From: an uncultured delta proteobacterium
GTDB taxonomy: Bacteria > Desulfobacterota > Binatia > UBA9968
Assembly: GCA_963745835.1 (NCBI GenBank)
Contig: CAVUZH010000019.1
Location: 288,001-352,000 of the forward strand
Direction: 5' to 3'
DNA length: 64,000 bases
The notes under the pieces: generated by a model
Database searches by the model: none
What the model was told of the DNA's origin: nothing
Seen by the model: the letters and a program-made list of their open reading frames with translations, nothing else
Made by a program: the position numbers and the translations under genes
Shown: positions 55,334-62,693 of the stretch, one piece after another
Layout of the letters: each line of letters opens with the position of its first letter
Numbering within the stretch: the first letter of the stretch is position 1

Positions 55334-57356
55334 CTATCTCTTGCTGCGCTTCGAGCCCGCCGCCGGTTTTTTTGAGGCCGTCCTGGGTTTTCTACGGCTT
55401 TTATTTTTGGAGCCGCTGTGCTGTTTCGGTTTTGCCGGCTTCTTCCTCAGATTTGCCAGAGACTCAGCGCTATCAATCGATTCGACTGCTCCCGCCAACG
55501 GTTCGTCTTCGCGCGCTTCTTCCGGCGGTGCGAGTTCGCTCCTCTCGTCGCCGGCAATCACCGGCGCATCTCCTTCTGTGCCTTCCGGAGTGACAATAAT
55601 GGAAAAAGGAAGACCTTCGGGGCCGACGTTGCGGCCCAGGGCTTCGTCTGTTTTTTGGCCACCAGTGCGTTTGGCGGCAATTTTTTGCAATTGCTCTTTG
55701 AGTTTTTCTTTGGGCAGCTTTCCGCCCTTGAGACGATTACATGCTTCGACAACTTCTTCGATATAAAGCTCGAATATATTGCGTCGGCGGAACTCACTCT
55801 TGGCGTGCTCGCGTCGTCTAAGAAATACTCCGAGCCGCCGACCGCACTCTTGCAGAGCCAGTTTGATTTCCTTTCGGATCTCGTCGTAATCGGCGATAGC
55901 TTCCTTCGATTCGCTGGTGAAAGGGACCCAAACTGACGCCATATGAATGAAGATCACCATCGGACCGGCGGGCAGCGCGCCTCGAGATTGAGGAACGCCG
56001 TAGTTACGCCACGTGGTATCGAGCACGGCCTTGAAGGTCGAGCAGGCGGACTGCTGATACAAGAGCGGCACCCGGTTGGCGTAACGGATCACACGCGCCA
56101 GCTCATTATCGTTGTCTTGCTGCTCCCCTTCAGCGAGTGCAACCCTAGGCTGTTCGGGTTTCTCGGGCGCCTGTTCGGGCGCCTTGCCATAGGCCAGGCC
56201 GGCCTCGATCAAGAAAGGGTTGCCCCGATAAACAGCAGGGGGCCGAGTGACGGCCGTGTAGAATTCTCCTTTGATTTGCTTATAGAGACCATGGAGGATC
56301 GCCCTTTCACCGATCGGCGAGATGCAGTTGCTGGGCGGCGCCATAATCTTGGTCGATTGAATCGCTCTATAAAGAGCCTCGGCGGCGGATCCATGAACAT
56401 TTCGCGGACGAATGCCCGACGACAGCTTTGCTGTCTTGCAGATCTCCTGAGCGAGATTACTCGATACCCGGCTGAAATCGCTGCTCAAAAATCCCGCGAG
56501 CGACTGGCTTTTACTGTCGTGCAGCATCCTCAGTAAAATTCCGAACTCGATGCCGTAGGGGTGCGGCTTGATTTCACGCGGTTGTGGCGGCAGCTCCTGA
56601 ATTGTTCGCGGATACTCTTTAGTTTCGCCCTCCGGAGTCTGATAAACGAGCTTCGACGTGCGGGTTGGCAATCGCGGTCTGCTCTAGATATTCATCCACC
56701 GAAGCCCGTCCTTTTTGATAGCGGCCTTCTATTTCGAGCGTCACCTGAGTGCCGCGATGGTTCTCCCAAGCGATCTTCTTGTTCTCAAAAATCCGGGGCT
56801 CGTTCTTCTTGGTATCGATCTGAACCTCGAAATAATGAGCCGGGGACTTGGCGCTGATGCGGGACGTGATCTGCACCGGTTTGCCGGTGGTGAGTTGCGC
56901 ATACATGCCGGCAGCCGATATGCCGATCCCCTGCTGTCCACGGCTCATGCGCAATCGGTGAAATTTGGACCCGTAGAGAAGCTTGGCAAAAATTTTCGGA
57001 ACCTGCTGGCGGACAATACCCGGCCCGTAATCGATCACGGTGATGCGAAATCGATTGGCCTGGCTCGGTGGCGGCGCCGCATTGCCATTCGGAGCGACCT
57101 CCAGCCTGACAATTACTTCGGGTAAGATGCCGGCTTCCTCACAGGCGTCAAGCGCGTTGTCGACAGCTTCTTTGACGCAGGTGAGCAGAGCCTTTCTTGG
57201 ATTGTCGAAACCCAATAAGTGACGGTTTTTGGTAAAGAACTCGGAAACTGAGATTTCTCTCTGACGTGCGCCCATTTCTACCGCCGATAGCGAGATCTTT
57301 GGCGGACCAGGTGGAACTTCGACTAAGTCAGTGGACTTTACTTGAGCCTTGGACAT
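55334..57356 (-). CDS. top6B: DNA topoisomerase VI subunit B, split by a one-base insertion near 56655
   Basis: SVSEFFTKNRHLLGF, KEAVDNALDA, DYGPG, GSKF..SRGQQGIG GHKL motifs; ANPH then KPHPYG, YRGNPF, RYANRVPL, VPFTSESKEA in the next frame; span 2023 nt = 3n+1. Confidence 0.9.
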
Positions 57357-57734: not shown

Positions 57735-58739
57735 TTATTGCCAGCCGTAAAAACGTTTTGCGTTTTCCCCCAAAATTCTATTCTTGGCCTGCTCCGAGAT
57801 GTCCTTCCTGCCGCGAATCGTTGATACGACATACGGAAAGATACCGTCCCAGTGCGGATAATCGGAAGCAAAAAGGACCTTATCATCGCCGATTCGTTCG
57901 AGCACATAGGGAAGGGTCTCTTCTTCGGGCTCGGTGGCGAAAAACAGATTGCCATGCTTTACGTACTCGCTAGGTTTTTGCTTGCATGCGGGCGTTTCCA
58001 CTTTGCCGCGCTTCTCCCATTCCTCATCCATTCGTTCCATCCAATAAGGAATCCAGCCTACGCCGCATTCAAGAAAAGCGATCCGCAGCTTTGAGAAACG
58101 TTCCGGAATGCCACCGTAGATTAGGCCGACAAACTGAATCACCGTCTCCACCGGCCGGCCGATGGTATGCATGAACATGAAGCTGTCGAAGCGGATTTCT
58201 CCGGCCGGGCCGGCGCGCCGGTTATGCACACAGAGCGGAACATTGAGCCGCTGAAGCTCGTCATAAATCGGCCAGAAAATTTGCGAGCCGAGGTGTTCCT
58301 TCATTCCCTGAGTCGCTACCGCGATGGCGGATAGCCCGAGCTTAGTGATCGCCCGGTTTGCCTCTTCGACAGCCGCTGCGGGATCCTGAAACGGCAGCAA
58401 AGCGACGCCTTTTAAGCGCGGCGATTGTCGGCACACTCCGGCGATAAAGTCATTGTACGCGCGCGCATAAGCAACGGCATAATTGCGCTCGATCAACCCG
58501 TTGACAGCAAAGCTGCTCGTGGGAAACAAAACTGAACTATCGATGCCTTCCTTGTCCATGTCTTTGAGTCGGGTGGGCACATCGCAGTCCTCCAACCCGC
58601 CGACCAGGCCGCCCATGCCGGTATCCATGCCGTCGGACGGGAGCAGAGGACGGCCGCGCTTGCTATGCGGCTCGGCTAAATGTTCTCGGACATCGGCGTC
58701 CTTTTCAACGATGTGGCCGTCTGCATCAATGGTATTCAC
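57735..58739 (-). CDS. Amidohydrolase family protein (Amidohydro_2)
   Basis: IDADGH, FLECGVGWIPYW, ASDYPHWD; GTG start with GGAGG RBS. Confidence 0.88.
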   Translation of the reverse strand: MNTIDADGHIVEKDADVREHLAEPHSKRGRPLLPSDGMDTGMGGLVGGLEDCDVPTRLKDMDKEGIDSSVLFPTSSFAVNGLIERNYAVAYARAYNDFIAGVCRQSPRLKGVALLPFQDPAAAVEEANRAITKLGLSAIAVATQGMKEHLGSQIFWPIYDELQRLNVPLCVHNRRAGPAGEIRFDSFMFMHTIGRPVETVIQFVGLIYGGIPERFSKLRIAFLECGVGWIPYWMERMDEEWEKRGKVETPACKQKPSEYVKHGNLFFATEPEEETLPYVLERIGDDKVLFASDYPHWDGIFPYVVSTIRGRKDISEQAKNRILGENAKRFYGWQ

Positions 58740-58774: not shown

Positions 58775-59065
58775 TTAGTTTTTGTCTTCGACCCGAAGAG
58801 AACTCAACCATTCTTCATGCACATCAACCCAGATAGAATCTTGATCGCGGCACAAAGAGAGTGCGCTCAAATCGAACCTGACGGTGTAAAGCGGATCGTA
58901 CAGGCCGCGATGATCTTTGGGATTTTCTAAAACACCGTGAACCAAACCAATCACGCCGCGTTTGCCGCGGATATATTCGGGCGTCCGTGGATTGTTCCGA
59001 TGGGCCATTTCCGTAGCGACGACAACCGCGTCGCCAATTTTAAATTTACAATCGCTTGCGCTCAT
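58775..59065 (-). CDS. Nitrile hydratase beta C-terminal / thiocyanate hydrolase ScnA-like SH3 subunit
   Basis: FKIGDAV, RTPEYIRGKRGVI, PLYTVRF, VDVHEEWL. Confidence 0.85.
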   Translation of the reverse strand: MSASDCKFKIGDAVVVATEMAHRNNPRTPEYIRGKRGVIGLVHGVLENPKDHRGLYDPLYTVRFDLSALSLCRDQDSIWVDVHEEWLSSLRVEDKN

Positions 59066-59073
59066 AGGTCTCG

Positions 59074-60147
59074 TCAATCGGGTCGAACTCTCGGCGTCTC
59101 CGGCACTGCTCCGGGCCGCCGCGCTTCGCTTAGCTCGGAAGGTTCCTTTGCTAACCCGGCGCCAATCAAACTGTCGATGGTGACAAGCTTGGCCAGTTCC
59201 TCCGCCGGCATGCCTTCAGTGCCGGCAGGTCGCTTTGGCAAAACAAAATAGCGAACGTCCGAAGTGCTGTCCCACACCCGAATCTCCTGTTCGGCAGGAA
59301 GCTCTAGCGAGAACATCTCCTGGAGCACAGCGCGTGGCGTCTGCACAATTCGTTCTTTATAGATATCATGCTTATACCACCATGGGGTATCGCCGAGAAT
59401 GTCGTACGGATAGCAGGAGCATAAAGTGCAAACGACGACATTGTGAACAGTCTCGGTATTTTCCACAACGCGCAACTTGCCGATCTTGCCCTGGTGCACA
59501 CCCATTTCCCTGAGCGCTTCCCTTCCGCTCGTCAGCAAAGCCTGTTTAAATTCCGGATCTGTCCAGGCTTTGGCGACGATGACCGCGCCGGCCCAGGGCC
59601 GCTCCTCATGAAGTTGCTTCCAGCGCTGCTCTAACTCTTGTCGTGTTGCCCAGTGCCGCTCGATCAGGGCTTGCACGAAAACCTCGAGCAGTTCCTGGTA
59701 ATCTTTTAGATCCTGCTCCAAACTGATCATGCGCTCTTCCAGGGTGCCGTGATGCTCTTTCTTTTTGATCCTGAAAAAATCATCGTAATCGCCGCGCTCC
59801 TTGCGGTTATCTTCGATTACCATGTCCATGCCTTCGACGCTGCGTGAAGAAACAAGCGCGATCCCCTTGACGTACTCGTCGAGCCATTCTTCCAGATAAC
59901 GCACCCGAGCTTCCAAATTTTTGCCCTGAGGTTTTCTCGTCTCGAAGAATTGGTTAGCGCGTTTGAGCGCGGCGCGCGCCTTTAGCAAATCGTAAAACGT
60001 AACGATACCCCGGCGGATGAGATAAATAATGCGCGGCTCCAAACGCTTCGCCCGGTAGTATTCCAAGTCCTCTTCGACGGCGGTGATGTGAGCCTCATAA
60101 TCGTGCATGTGCCCTTCGAAAGGCTTGTGTCCATGTTTGCCTGACAT
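59074..60147 (-). CDS. Co-type nitrile hydratase alpha / thiocyanate hydrolase gamma-like subunit with long N-terminal extension
   Basis: GAVIVAKAWTDPEFK, VENT..VHNVVVCTLCSCYP, P.WYK, VWDSTSDVRYFVLPKRP.GTEG. Confidence 0.9.
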   Translation of the reverse strand: MSGKHGHKPFEGHMHDYEAHITAVEEDLEYYRAKRLEPRIIYLIRRGIVTFYDLLKARAALKRANQFFETRKPQGKNLEARVRYLEEWLDEYVKGIALVSSRSVEGMDMVIEDNRKERGDYDDFFRIKKKEHHGTLEERMISLEQDLKDYQELLEVFVQALIERHWATRQELEQRWKQLHEERPWAGAVIVAKAWTDPEFKQALLTSGREALREMGVHQGKIGKLRVVENTETVHNVVVCTLCSCYPYDILGDTPWWYKHDIYKERIVQTPRAVLQEMFSLELPAEQEIRVWDSTSDVRYFVLPKRPAGTEGMPAEELAKLVTIDSLIGAGLAKEPSELSEARRPGAVPETPRVRPD

Positions 60148-60260: not shown

Positions 60261-61979
60261 TCAGTGAGTGTCGAAAATCTCCTGGTACTGTTTCAGCTTG
60301 TCTTTGGTAGCGTCGCGCTCCGCGGCGCTTGGCTTTGCCGCATCCGCTGCCGGCGGCAAGCATCCGAATTTCAGGAGACAGGCCATCAACAACAGCCGCG
60401 CTTTAGTAGCGGTAAGATTATTGCCGGCGATGGCTAAAGGGTCTCGTTTGGCGTCGACAAAGCCGCTGGCGTTGCCCCTGCCGACTTTAACCACTGGCAT
60501 GCCGCTAAAAGTGGCTCGTTTGAGGGCCGCATCAACGGAATTGCTCATCGCACCAAAAGGCGCTGAGCCTTCGGCGACAAAACCAGCCAGTGGCGCAGTA
60601 TGCAGGTTCCTGTCGATTCGCGCGAGAATATCGACTTCTTGCTCGGCGCTGCCGGCAGTGTCTTCGGGAAGGTAGCGCGCATGCTTGAGTAGAGTGACCT
60701 TTGGAATTGCTGTCGCCAGCAAATTTCTTGTCCCATCCTTTATTGGCACCGCAATGGTGCCGATATGTGATCCTTGCATTCTGGAACCCTGAACCTGATC
60801 CGGCAGGTGTCGCGTATTCACCAACGAGTTGTGCGTATGCCGCTTGACCGTTTTGAACGAGAACTGCGGCGCGCCGGGATGGCCGATCCTGCCGATAATG
60901 CCGCCATGACCGCCCGTGGCAACGTACCCACCCGGGCGCGCGTCGGCTTTTTGCACGTCGCGCGAGGTGAAAATCTGTTCGTCCAGGATAGCCACGGCGC
61001 CGACGCAATCGTTTCCCGACTCATCAGCCCAAATTCTTGAACTGATATAATCCACCGAATCAACGATGTTGCGATCTCCGTCATTGCCGATGGCGCCATG
61101 CGGCCGTTGGGAAGAATTTCCGACAATAGGCACCGCCGTATCGATCAATAGATTGAGCCAATAAATTGTTTCTTCGACGAATGGGCTTCCCTCCAACCAA
61201 ATGGCGCCAGAATACTTTCCGCTGCTCAGCGCGCCTTGGACGATGTTGGTGACCCGTGCGAGTGCCGACATCGGCGGCTCTTGACGCAAGTACGGCGGTC
61301 GATAAGGAAAAAAATCCGTGCCGCGGATTTCCGGCGCAATCTCGCCGCTTCCCATATCCGTGCGCTCGCCGGCGCTTCGTCCTTTCGCGTACCCGCCGGA
61401 AGGGAGCGCGCGGTAGAAGTCAAACTCGGCCTTGCCGCTAAGCAAACAACCGACGCCCTCCTCGGATATGCCAAGACGATCTATTTCTTCAAACAGCCTG
61501 GCACCGTCGGGGAAAAATGGCACCCGGCAGAGTTCTGCCGGCACATCTTTATCTGTTCCGTCCATTTCCCAGGGCTGGCCATTGGCTTGTCGCGCCATAT
61601 AGGGCAAAGGATAAAGGCCGTCCTCCGGCTTGAGCGTGACTTCATAAACCGGTTTGTCCTCAGGACTCATGCGCTTTTGATGAAAAGCGCCGGCGGCGTC
61701 GAGATAGCCGTCCGGAGGTCCGTAGAGTTCCGCCGAGTCGCGTTCCAGTGGGTGAGCGCTAAATTGTTCGACATAAACAGTCACTGGCGCAGCGAGCCGT
61801 TGCGGCCTTAGAACATCGAAACGAAGGGGAGTACCATCGGGCTGGTTCCGCGGCGATAAACCATATTTCGCACGCGCCTTGTTGCTCGTCACCAATGGCT
61901 CGCTGTTTTGGATGGTCGCCGTCGGTCCTGAAAAAACTGCGATACGAGGCTTTTTACCAGCCTTCATTGGGTCTGCCAC
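60261..61979 (-). CDS. Asparaginase/glutaminase-fold amidohydrolase, atypical
   Basis: GPTATI, EGSPFVEET, SQRP, DGDRN, RDVQK, C-terminal NLTATKARLLLM. Confidence 0.72.
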   Translation of the reverse strand: MADPMKAGKKPRIAVFSGPTATIQNSEPLVTSNKARAKYGLSPRNQPDGTPLRFDVLRPQRLAAPVTVYVEQFSAHPLERDSAELYGPPDGYLDAAGAFHQKRMSPEDKPVYEVTLKPEDGLYPLPYMARQANGQPWEMDGTDKDVPAELCRVPFFPDGARLFEEIDRLGISEEGVGCLLSGKAEFDFYRALPSGGYAKGRSAGERTDMGSGEIAPEIRGTDFFPYRPPYLRQEPPMSALARVTNIVQGALSSGKYSGAIWLEGSPFVEETIYWLNLLIDTAVPIVGNSSQRPHGAIGNDGDRNIVDSVDYISSRIWADESGNDCVGAVAILDEQIFTSRDVQKADARPGGYVATGGHGGIIGRIGHPGAPQFSFKTVKRHTHNSLVNTRHLPDQVQGSRMQGSHIGTIAVPIKDGTRNLLATAIPKVTLLKHARYLPEDTAGSAEQEVDILARIDRNLHTAPLAGFVAEGSAPFGAMSNSVDAALKRATFSGMPVVKVGRGNASGFVDAKRDPLAIAGNNLTATKARLLLMACLLKFGCLPPAADAAKPSAAERDATKDKLKQYQEIFDTH

Positions 61980-62099: not shown

Positions 62100-62693
62100 T
62101 TACTTGAGCTCGTAGGGAATCTGCTCCGGCCCGTAGCCTTGCCAATATCTTTTTGTCGCCGGATCATAGCGTCCCTGTAAGAAACCGCCGGCTTTTTGGG
62201 CCCGGACGATAATCGCAACCGTGCGCTCTTCGCCGCTCTGTTCGGCATGAATCTGAAAAGGCCCGACGAGGTCTACTTTTCCCGGACCTACGTTTACTTT
62301 CTCCGTCTGACGGATATCGGCGTAATCGGATTTTGCGCCATCATCAAGCCGCTCATACCGTTCAATTGACTCATGACCGTCAAGCACCCCATAGAGGGTC
62401 CAGTTGTGCGCATGGTCATGGATCTGTGTTCGCGTCTTTGGGCTCTTTATCAAGCCGTTGATGACGAACTTATACTCCGGATCTTCGTAAAAAAGCAGAT
62501 TTTGCGCGCGCTCATCGCCTTGCCGGCAAGCAGGCCAGTCCTTTGACTGTTCTTTTATCGAGCGATCGCCGATCAAAGCCTCCAGCAAGGGAGTCATCTT
62601 TTTCCATCGCTCGGCAGGATCTTTTTCCTGAGTGAAAAGCTCACGTGCCGATGTGATGAACCGTTGAACTGCAGATTGCGAACTGGAAGTCAT
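62100..62693 (-). CDS. Cysteine dioxygenase-like cupin
   Basis: TQIHDH...YGVLDGHE...YER.DDG...IHAE (3-His cupin pattern). Confidence 0.72.
   Translation of the reverse strand: MTSSSQSAVQRFITSARELFTQEKDPAERWKKMTPLLEALIGDRSIKEQSKDWPACRQGDERAQNLLFYEDPEYKFVINGLIKSPKTRTQIHDHAHNWTLYGVLDGHESIERYERLDDGAKSDYADIRQTEKVNVGPGKVDLVGPFQIHAEQSGEERTVAIIVRAQKAGGFLQGRYDPATKRYWQGYGPEQIPYELK

Follow-up and report, generated by a model that had tools for sequence, protein, structure and literature searches.

The 64,000-nucleotide stretch of Binatia DNA analysed here (the window) carries two adjacent minus-strand genes which resemble a cobalt-type (Co-type) nitrile hydratase (NHase) without the N-terminal half of its beta subunit (beta-N). 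One encodes an alpha subunit with an N-terminal extension, here named alphaX, and the other a stand-alone C-terminal half of beta (beta-C). We asked what the extension is and whether such a pair could be an enzyme by itself.

Identification of the gene pair

Analyses of the ORF, Pfam matches and homologues placed alphaX (59074..60147, minus strand, 357 aa) in the Co-type NHase/thiocyanate hydrolase (SCNase) superfamily. A GGAG lies 7 nt upstream of its ATG, and PF02979 (NHase alpha) spans residues 153-330 (E 4.9e-66, 222 bits against a cut-off of 27). The first-pass annotation had described a 357-aa alpha subunit with the metal motif VCTLCSCY at residues 239-246, and this was confirmed by the ORF and its sequence; the motif lies at 59410..59433 (-) and its residues C240, C243, S244 and C245 are kept in 27 of the 27 alphaX family rows of the alignment. 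VCTLCSCY is given as the Co-type motif in the available text of PMC3323583. The best 120 homologues are 355-395 aa long, most of them exactly 357 aa, and cover 100% of the query, so that alphaX is not a chance or assembly artefact. The nearest named entries, 97% and 89% identical, are labelled Candidatus Binatia. The C-terminal tail P-R-x-R-P-D (59074-59100, -) is found in many bacterial members and is absent from the archaeal and some bacterial ones.

The stand-alone SH3-like beta-C subunit is encoded at 58775..59065 (-). Its ORF (58775-59077, -) would give 100 aa from a TTG; homologues begin at an ATG four codons later, and the 96-aa product from 59065 is therefore likelier. As had been read from the letters alone, this protein holds RTPEYIRGK and is only the C-terminal half of a beta subunit: it matches PF02211 (beta-C, E 5e-13) and the C-terminal halves of solved beta chains and nothing else. 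Residue R27 in NPRTP (58985-58987, -) aligns with the HTR Arg of the solved beta chains, a position whose reference number we take to be beta-Arg157/141, and is invariant in 42 of 42 beta-C sequences. The protein also carries the family motif D51-H52.

Conservation and distribution

Comparison of synteny across homologues, a check proposed with the first-pass annotation, revealed that the two-gene layout is conserved. The beta-C gene comes after alphaX in 40 of 44 genome loci (the four misses stop at contig ends), in 14 of 16 further loci (L093 and L105 hold a truncated alphaX) and in all eight metagenome loci. That no beta-N or activator gene is visible nearby held across the family, in which neither a beta-N nor a P14K-like gene was found in 68 loci (685 kb in six frames; some loci are duplicates), but it did not hold for the genome, which has beta-N genes elsewhere. 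A promoter and terminator scan around the pair gave nothing informative.

The tree of the catalytic core indicated that the alphaX family is one clade (SH-aLRT 99), separate from the canonical and the split types. The family made up 26 of 72 rows in one alpha tree and 18 of 56 in another; all trees are quick trees with SH-aLRT support only, the alpha trees being midpoint-rooted. At least one PF02979 match was present in 58 of 61 related genomes and alphaX in 34 of them, while 300 genomes sampled from the wider phylum gave no convincing alphaX match (two at E ~6e-4 lay in long unrelated frames). Family f3 genomes, G042 among them, contain clusters of short ORFs with weak partial PF02979 matches, which are probably NHLP-type leader peptides.

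A sequence search with residues 1-166 against 1.84 billion representatives returned 105 matches, and those listed were alpha fusions or fragments, plus one probable chimera. Two distant members are Nitrososphaerales archaea by name, with 35% identity over the searched N-terminal part. The distant members P0182 and P0206 have the changed metal motifs CFFCSC and CFGCSC. With whole alphaX, the ESM Atlas returned clusters labelled only as NHase alpha, two of them (164 and 61 members) mostly Binatota, and one further cluster of 115 members, mostly Actinomycetota, at 0.89, which we take as a lead only; residues 10-135 gave no usable match there. Members of the family are annotated simply as 'nitrile hydratase alpha', and eight of the 598 soil-metagenome VCTLCSCY-type matches listed belong to it. 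In four soil metatranscriptome runs, both genes are partly covered by contigs, one of which bridges the pair. Intergenic DNA is covered too and the samples possibly contained DNA, so this coverage is no proof of expression.

Structure of the N-terminal extension

Residues 133-336 of alphaX superimposed on the whole of 4ob1_A (residues 2-204; Z 23.4, rmsd 4.0, 201 aligned). Since these residues cover an entire canonical alpha subunit, the true extension is residues 1-132 (59752..60147, -); the reported extension is thus real, and its length is about 132 residues and not ~140. It has a His-rich start with conserved H13, D16 and H20. In two AlphaFold2 monomer models (mean pLDDT 80.6 and 81.7), helices were predicted at residues 17-45, 51-60, 78-98, 136-163 and 169-179; the linker 61-76 is variable and sometimes His-rich, and the loop 110-124 had a pLDDT below 50 in both models.

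Profile alignment with hhalign identified the three long helices as copies of one repeat (second against third P 9e-7, first against second P 5.5e-4, first against third P 0.008). Module 1 (residues 13-60; 59968..60111, -) is a long helix, an LIRRG turn and a short helix, module 2 (residues 77-98; 59854..59919, -) is a helix repeated in module 3, and module 3 (residues 133-182; 59602..59751, -), according to superposition and profile alignment, is the alpha N-terminal arm. Homology to beta-N extends to the canonical alpha arm (P 2e-8). Module 3 can be aligned with that arm and with beta-N unit 2, and with unit 1 of split-type beta-N it shares 44 gap-free columns (P 1.5e-6; 0 of 25 shuffles reached the score). 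Taken together, alignments and models show residues 13-182 as three related, predicted helical modules of the kind that builds beta-N (two) and the alpha arm (one). Module 1 (identity 41-95%) and the loop 108-127 are conserved like the catalytic core, archaeal members included. Residues Y30, K34, R35, R45, R115, G119 and Y121 are invariant, the last three in 36 of 36 rows; they fall in module 1 and in the conserved loop E112-D113-x-R115-x-E117-x-G119-x-Y121-D122 (residues 110-127; 59767..59820, -).

A search of the extension for beta-N by HMM, also proposed at the outset, was negative: none of 88 members passed PF21006, the best at E 0.08. The likeness of YY...LIRRG to the beta-N/alpha-N helix, on which the first reading leaned, can be confirmed but is weak (hhalign P 0.002-0.011; 3 of 40 shuffles equalled it), and the L-x-x-(K/R)-G helix-turn-helix is the only part that can be aligned with ordinary beta-N profiles. 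Foldseek against the PDB returned alpha/gamma chains only at E <0.001, and a profile search of PDB sequences found no beta chain up to E 10. When the N-terminal bundle of the model was compared with 48,161 chains, NHase/SCNase beta chains ranked 5, 8 and 22 (Z 5.3, 4.9 and 4.2), and with the second model they ranked 4, 9 and 25. The Z values against beta chains (3.8-5.3; rmsd 5.6-9.8, 81-86 aligned) are at background for helical bundles and partly reflect the homology of the alpha arm itself to beta-N. Two finer mappings onto beta-N did not score above shuffles, namely G119-x-Y121-D122 as the beta N-terminal G-x-H-D motif (4/25 and 13/25) and module 2 plus the loop as helices 1-2 of ordinary beta-N. 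PF27793 is precomputed on 60 of the best 120 homologues; a match on half of a set of near-identical proteins suggests a marginal match, and the Pfam family could be one built on part of the alphaX extension.

The missing arginine and the sister fusions

According to the available text of PMC7587978 and PMC7193024, beta-Arg52 and beta-Arg157 form hydrogen bonds with the modified cysteines, and enzymes that lose these arginines are inactive. For the first of the two, an intermediate is found in the same order in loci L200-L202, in which beta-C is followed by an alpha subunit with a colinear, degenerate beta-N without the HDxGG start (L200:2038-3229; 17 homologues). By the beta-C tree this lineage is the closest sampled relative of the alphaX family (SH-aLRT 94, on few columns), and its beta-C shares an N-P-x-D-H loop with that of the alphaX family; the alpha tree leaves its placement unsettled. 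The EDGR motif of L200-L202, in which the beta-Arg52 equivalent lies, aligns with the D-E-L-R of beta-N and, at E 0.025, with E88-E89-R90-R91 of the SCNase beta chain 2dd4_B, and their YFEKRL aligns with the YY helix. In alphaX the counterparts are E-D-x-R115, whose match to EDGR has modest statistical support, and Y30-x-x-x-K34-R35-L, in an order reversed relative to beta-N.

Alignment of the alphaX loop 104-128 with the sister lineage fell on the EDGR motif with a score reached by none of 30 shuffles, and module 1 beat 28 of 30 shuffles against the same lineage; these motifs were picked after inspecting the sequences and the profiles are shallow. An HMM of the lineage found nothing significant in residues 1-132 of 36 alphaX sequences (best E 0.014), and against ordinary beta-N profiles the Arg loop was not above shuffles (19/40 and 27/40). 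By its motif and by the sister lineage, R115 (59803-59805, -) is the best candidate for the beta-Arg52/56 equivalent; R35 and R45 are alternatives for this role.

Other fusions were met in the same survey. In loci L203-L211 and L117, beta-C is followed by a 270-290 aa alpha subunit with only two helical modules and a His-rich linker; the arm module keeps D-E-x-R-R, and the catalytic Arg may therefore come from the alpha arm. Locus L190 (L190:4599-5582) has an intact split-type beta-N fused to alpha through a His-rich linker.

Comparison with known systems

The whole alpha subunit of canonical Co-type NHases (Pseudonocardia thermophila 1IRE/4OB1, Bacillus RAPc8 2DPP) is matched by alphaX residues 133-336 with 44% identity, and the VCTLCSC motif and the beta-Arg157 position are common to both. 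Canonical enzymes have a full beta subunit and P14K, whereas alphaX loci have neither, and the alpha-Gln and alpha-Trp116 positions are changed in alphaX. Both canonical profiles fail, TIGR01323 at 215.6 against a cut-off of 249.85 and the beta profile TIGR03888 at 33.8 against 152.2. ScnBAC of Thiobacillus thioparus (2DD4) likewise has the Co-type motif and a separate beta-C chain, and ScnB is one of the best-ranking structures against the N-terminal bundle (86 aligned residues at rmsd 7.8 and Z 4.9, a background-level score). SCNase has three genes, scnB-scnA-scnC, instead of two; on TIGR03887 alphaX reached 155.3 against a cut-off of 291.45. It has Tyr instead of gamma-Arg136, and the SCNase beta-Arg90 position would be the variable N114 if the motif mapping holds.

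Similar in composition are AnhD/AnhE/AnhA of Streptomyces canus and the toyocamycin NHase ToyJKL, which in the accessible portion of PMC7329996 also combine a Co-type alpha, a stand-alone beta-C and no activator. They have a beta-N gene, while alphaX loci have instead the 132-residue extension, the order alpha then beta-C, and an alpha in a separate clade. The beta-C of the alphaX family grouped with stand-alone beta-C and not with full beta chains (SH-aLRT 94 and 93; AnhE is outside this tree). The fusions in L190, L200-L202 and L203-L211, each with a separate beta-C, resemble alphaX in carrying beta-N-type modules on alpha; in them beta-N is colinear and detectable by HMM, whereas in alphaX it is undetected, the motif order is reversed and the helices are longer. 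Eukaryotic beta-alpha fusions, as described in the excerpts of PMC3323583, join a whole beta, and alphaX carries only beta-N-type modules.

The label of a third architecture given to the locus at first is an overstatement, as split three-gene forms, eukaryotic beta-alpha fusions and colinear beta-N-alpha fusions exist. The alphaX layout is not among the six NHase gene orders in the available text of a 2020 review (PMC7193024), and a phylogenetic survey, as far as its available text goes, searched with full beta and SCNase sequences and filtered by coverage (PMC10098168). Archaeal nthA is noted, with no substrate given, in the accessible passages of PMC12625717, and 'nitrile' is absent from the main text of the Binatota genome paper in its available form (PMC8262859). 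In the literature searched, which leaves most subscription journals outside, we found neither a description of the alphaX-type layout nor a link between Binatia/Binatota and nitrile terms. The alphaX/beta-C pair is a real, conserved and apparently undescribed variant of the NHase/SCNase superfamily; judged from its sequence, alphaX is like a Co-type NHase by every tested residue, yet it lies outside the canonical, SCNase and three-subunit families.

The predicted pocket and the neighbouring genes

The catalytic alpha core (residues 183-336; 59140..59601, -) differs from its relatives at several aligned positions. K221 stands at the alpha-Gln position, where Gln is replaced by Lys/Arg in 23 of 28 rows, and Y248 stands at the alpha-Trp116/gamma-Arg136 position, which is Tyr, His or Arg across the family; the equivalence of position 248 derives from the alignment and from the PDB titles aW116R and R136W. 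Asp249 and Asp253 are typical of the alphaX family. Beta-Arg90/91, gamma-Arg136 and alpha-Gln are pocket residues of the known enzymes. On this alignment the predicted pocket differs from those of both NHase and SCNase, which makes a different substrate plausible. As a guess, the most likely one is a small polar organic nitrile serving as nitrogen source.

A divergent asparaginase-fold gene (60261..61979, -; 572 aa with long insertions), whose HGTDTM motif reads EGSPFV, adjoins the pair in 39 of 44 loci and has counterparts of at least 50% identity in 45 of 61 related genomes. It was rejected as an obligate amidase: it was not found in 10 of 34 alphaX carriers and is unlinked in three more, it is present in 17 of 20 genomes of an alphaX-free family, and its catalytic motif is altered. 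Beyond it lies a thiol-dioxygenase-like cupin (62100..62693, -; 197 aa), which gave no Pfam match, was likened to mercaptosuccinate/3-mercaptopropionate dioxygenase and has as many as five paralogues in a single genome of the order. The cupin adjoins the pair in 36 of 44 loci and remains a neighbour in three different gene orders; as a dedicated Cys oxidase it is too widespread, being present in 56 of 61 genomes regardless of alphaX. The adjacency of both genes is a weak hint of an amino-acid nitrile such as beta-cyanoalanine; across genomes neither gene tracks alphaX. Beta-cyanoalanine itself is rather unlikely to be the substrate, and thiocyanate is less likely still.

An Amidohydro_2 gene (57735..58739, -; Pfam) comes immediately after the pair, in the same orientation, in the two closest loci alone. 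Topoisomerase VI subunit B (55334-57356, -) is split into two frames by a one-base insertion relative to the whole copy in a 97% identical locus, which is probably an assembly error.

A probable two-chain enzyme and its alternatives

The reading that we favour, as the probable one, is that alphaX and beta-C form a two-chain Co-type hydratase in which the role of beta-N is filled in cis by the extension. The Cys/Ser metal claw is intact in the alpha core, and beta-C has retained the Arg at the beta-Arg157 position. The modules would rebuild the alpha/beta-N helical interface inside one chain, so that no beta-N gene would be needed; R115 would stand in for beta-Arg52/56 next to the oxidised cysteines, with Y30 as a possible substitute for beta-Tyr68/72. 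By established NHase chemistry, cobalt would be bound by C240, C243, C245 and backbone amides, C243 and C245 would be oxidised, and the nitrile nitrogen would bind the metal before hydration to the amide. Such an enzyme may have arisen from a split-beta ancestor by fusion of beta-N to alpha, after which the modules would have been duplicated, reordered and diverged. A bolder version is possible, if doubtful: a self-contained, activator-free Co-hydratase in which a permuted and re-duplicated beta-N within alpha supplies catalytic R115 and Y30, and whose remodelled pocket takes a natural nitrile new to the superfamily (for example beta-cyanoalanine, converted to asparagine), which would give abundant soil Binatia and some Nitrososphaerales a nitrogen route.

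Could the pair instead take a standard beta-N in trans, the extension being accessory? The same genome has a canonical alpha/beta/P14K cluster on C20 (G000:C20:92324-94036; alpha motif CSCYPT) and, on C16, a split beta-N/beta-C/alpha cluster from which an activator is absent (G000:C16:221540-222787) and whose alpha motif CSCYPR places Arg at the gamma-136 position; a CobW-family gene lies on C14. Since this genome carries beta-N genes of its own, testing whether beta-N is required needed other genomes. PF21006 (beta-N) was matched in 25 of 34 carriers, as such borrowing would have it, and in nine it was not. In three of these nine the only beta-N is a degenerate one fused to a second alpha, and in the other six (G020, G025, G026, G028, G034 and G043) alphaX is the only alpha and PF21006 finds nothing; in G028 (98% complete, 7 contigs) there was no beta-N match even at E 5. 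Borrowing is therefore not required in six of 34 carriers, which are 90-98% complete drafts and mutually related. These genomes make it unlikely as a general rule, and we regard supply of beta-N in trans, for instance from C16, as very improbable for this pair.

It is unlikely, too, that alpha and beta-C suffice and that the extension is a built-in maturation or oligomerisation module, either a His-rich cobalt-loading chaperone like P14K/NhlE/AnhD or a coiled coil. The available text of PMC7329996 describes the activators as homologues of beta-N and gives beta-N (AnhD) itself the role of a swapping chaperone, and ToyJ alpha alone is reported active, as cited in the accessible parts of PMC7329996 and PMC11672702; the lack of an activator in the 68 loci and the conserved H13, D16 and H20 would also fit a chaperone. 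According to the same portion of PMC7329996, however, the three-subunit S. canus NHase requires both beta halves. The coiled-coil version draws on weak coiled-coil Pfam matches in about half of the members, but a permanent active-site role accords better with the seven invariant residues of module 1 and the loop. A maturation role and replacement of beta-N in cis can coexist. A further reading is that the Cys-claw site does other chemistry, such as thiocyanate, cyanamide or isonitrile hydrolysis, or has a sulfur/redox role tied to its neighbours; the score below the TIGR01323 cut-off, the pocket changes at 221, 248, 249 and 253, and ahcY (SAM cycle) together with the thiol-dioxygenase-like cupin as neighbours in 36 of 44 loci point that way. 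We consider it quite improbable: alphaX is far below the SCNase cut-off, an Arg at the gamma-Arg136 position occurs in only 3 of 27 rows, the cupin occurs irrespective of alphaX and, to our knowledge, characterised members of the superfamily all act on a C-N triple bond.

Significance

The maturation and natural substrates of NHases, which serve as industrial catalysts, are still a matter of debate. If the two-chain reading is true, an activator-free form of this kind would directly test which beta residues cysteine oxidation and catalysis need. The same bacterial order shows at least three ways of fusing a beta-N/alpha-arm module onto alpha, a natural series for the rearrangement of a subunit interface. 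Since alphaX is common in soil metagenomes and annotated merely as NHase alpha, its substrate matters for how uncultured soil bacteria and archaea use nitrogen.
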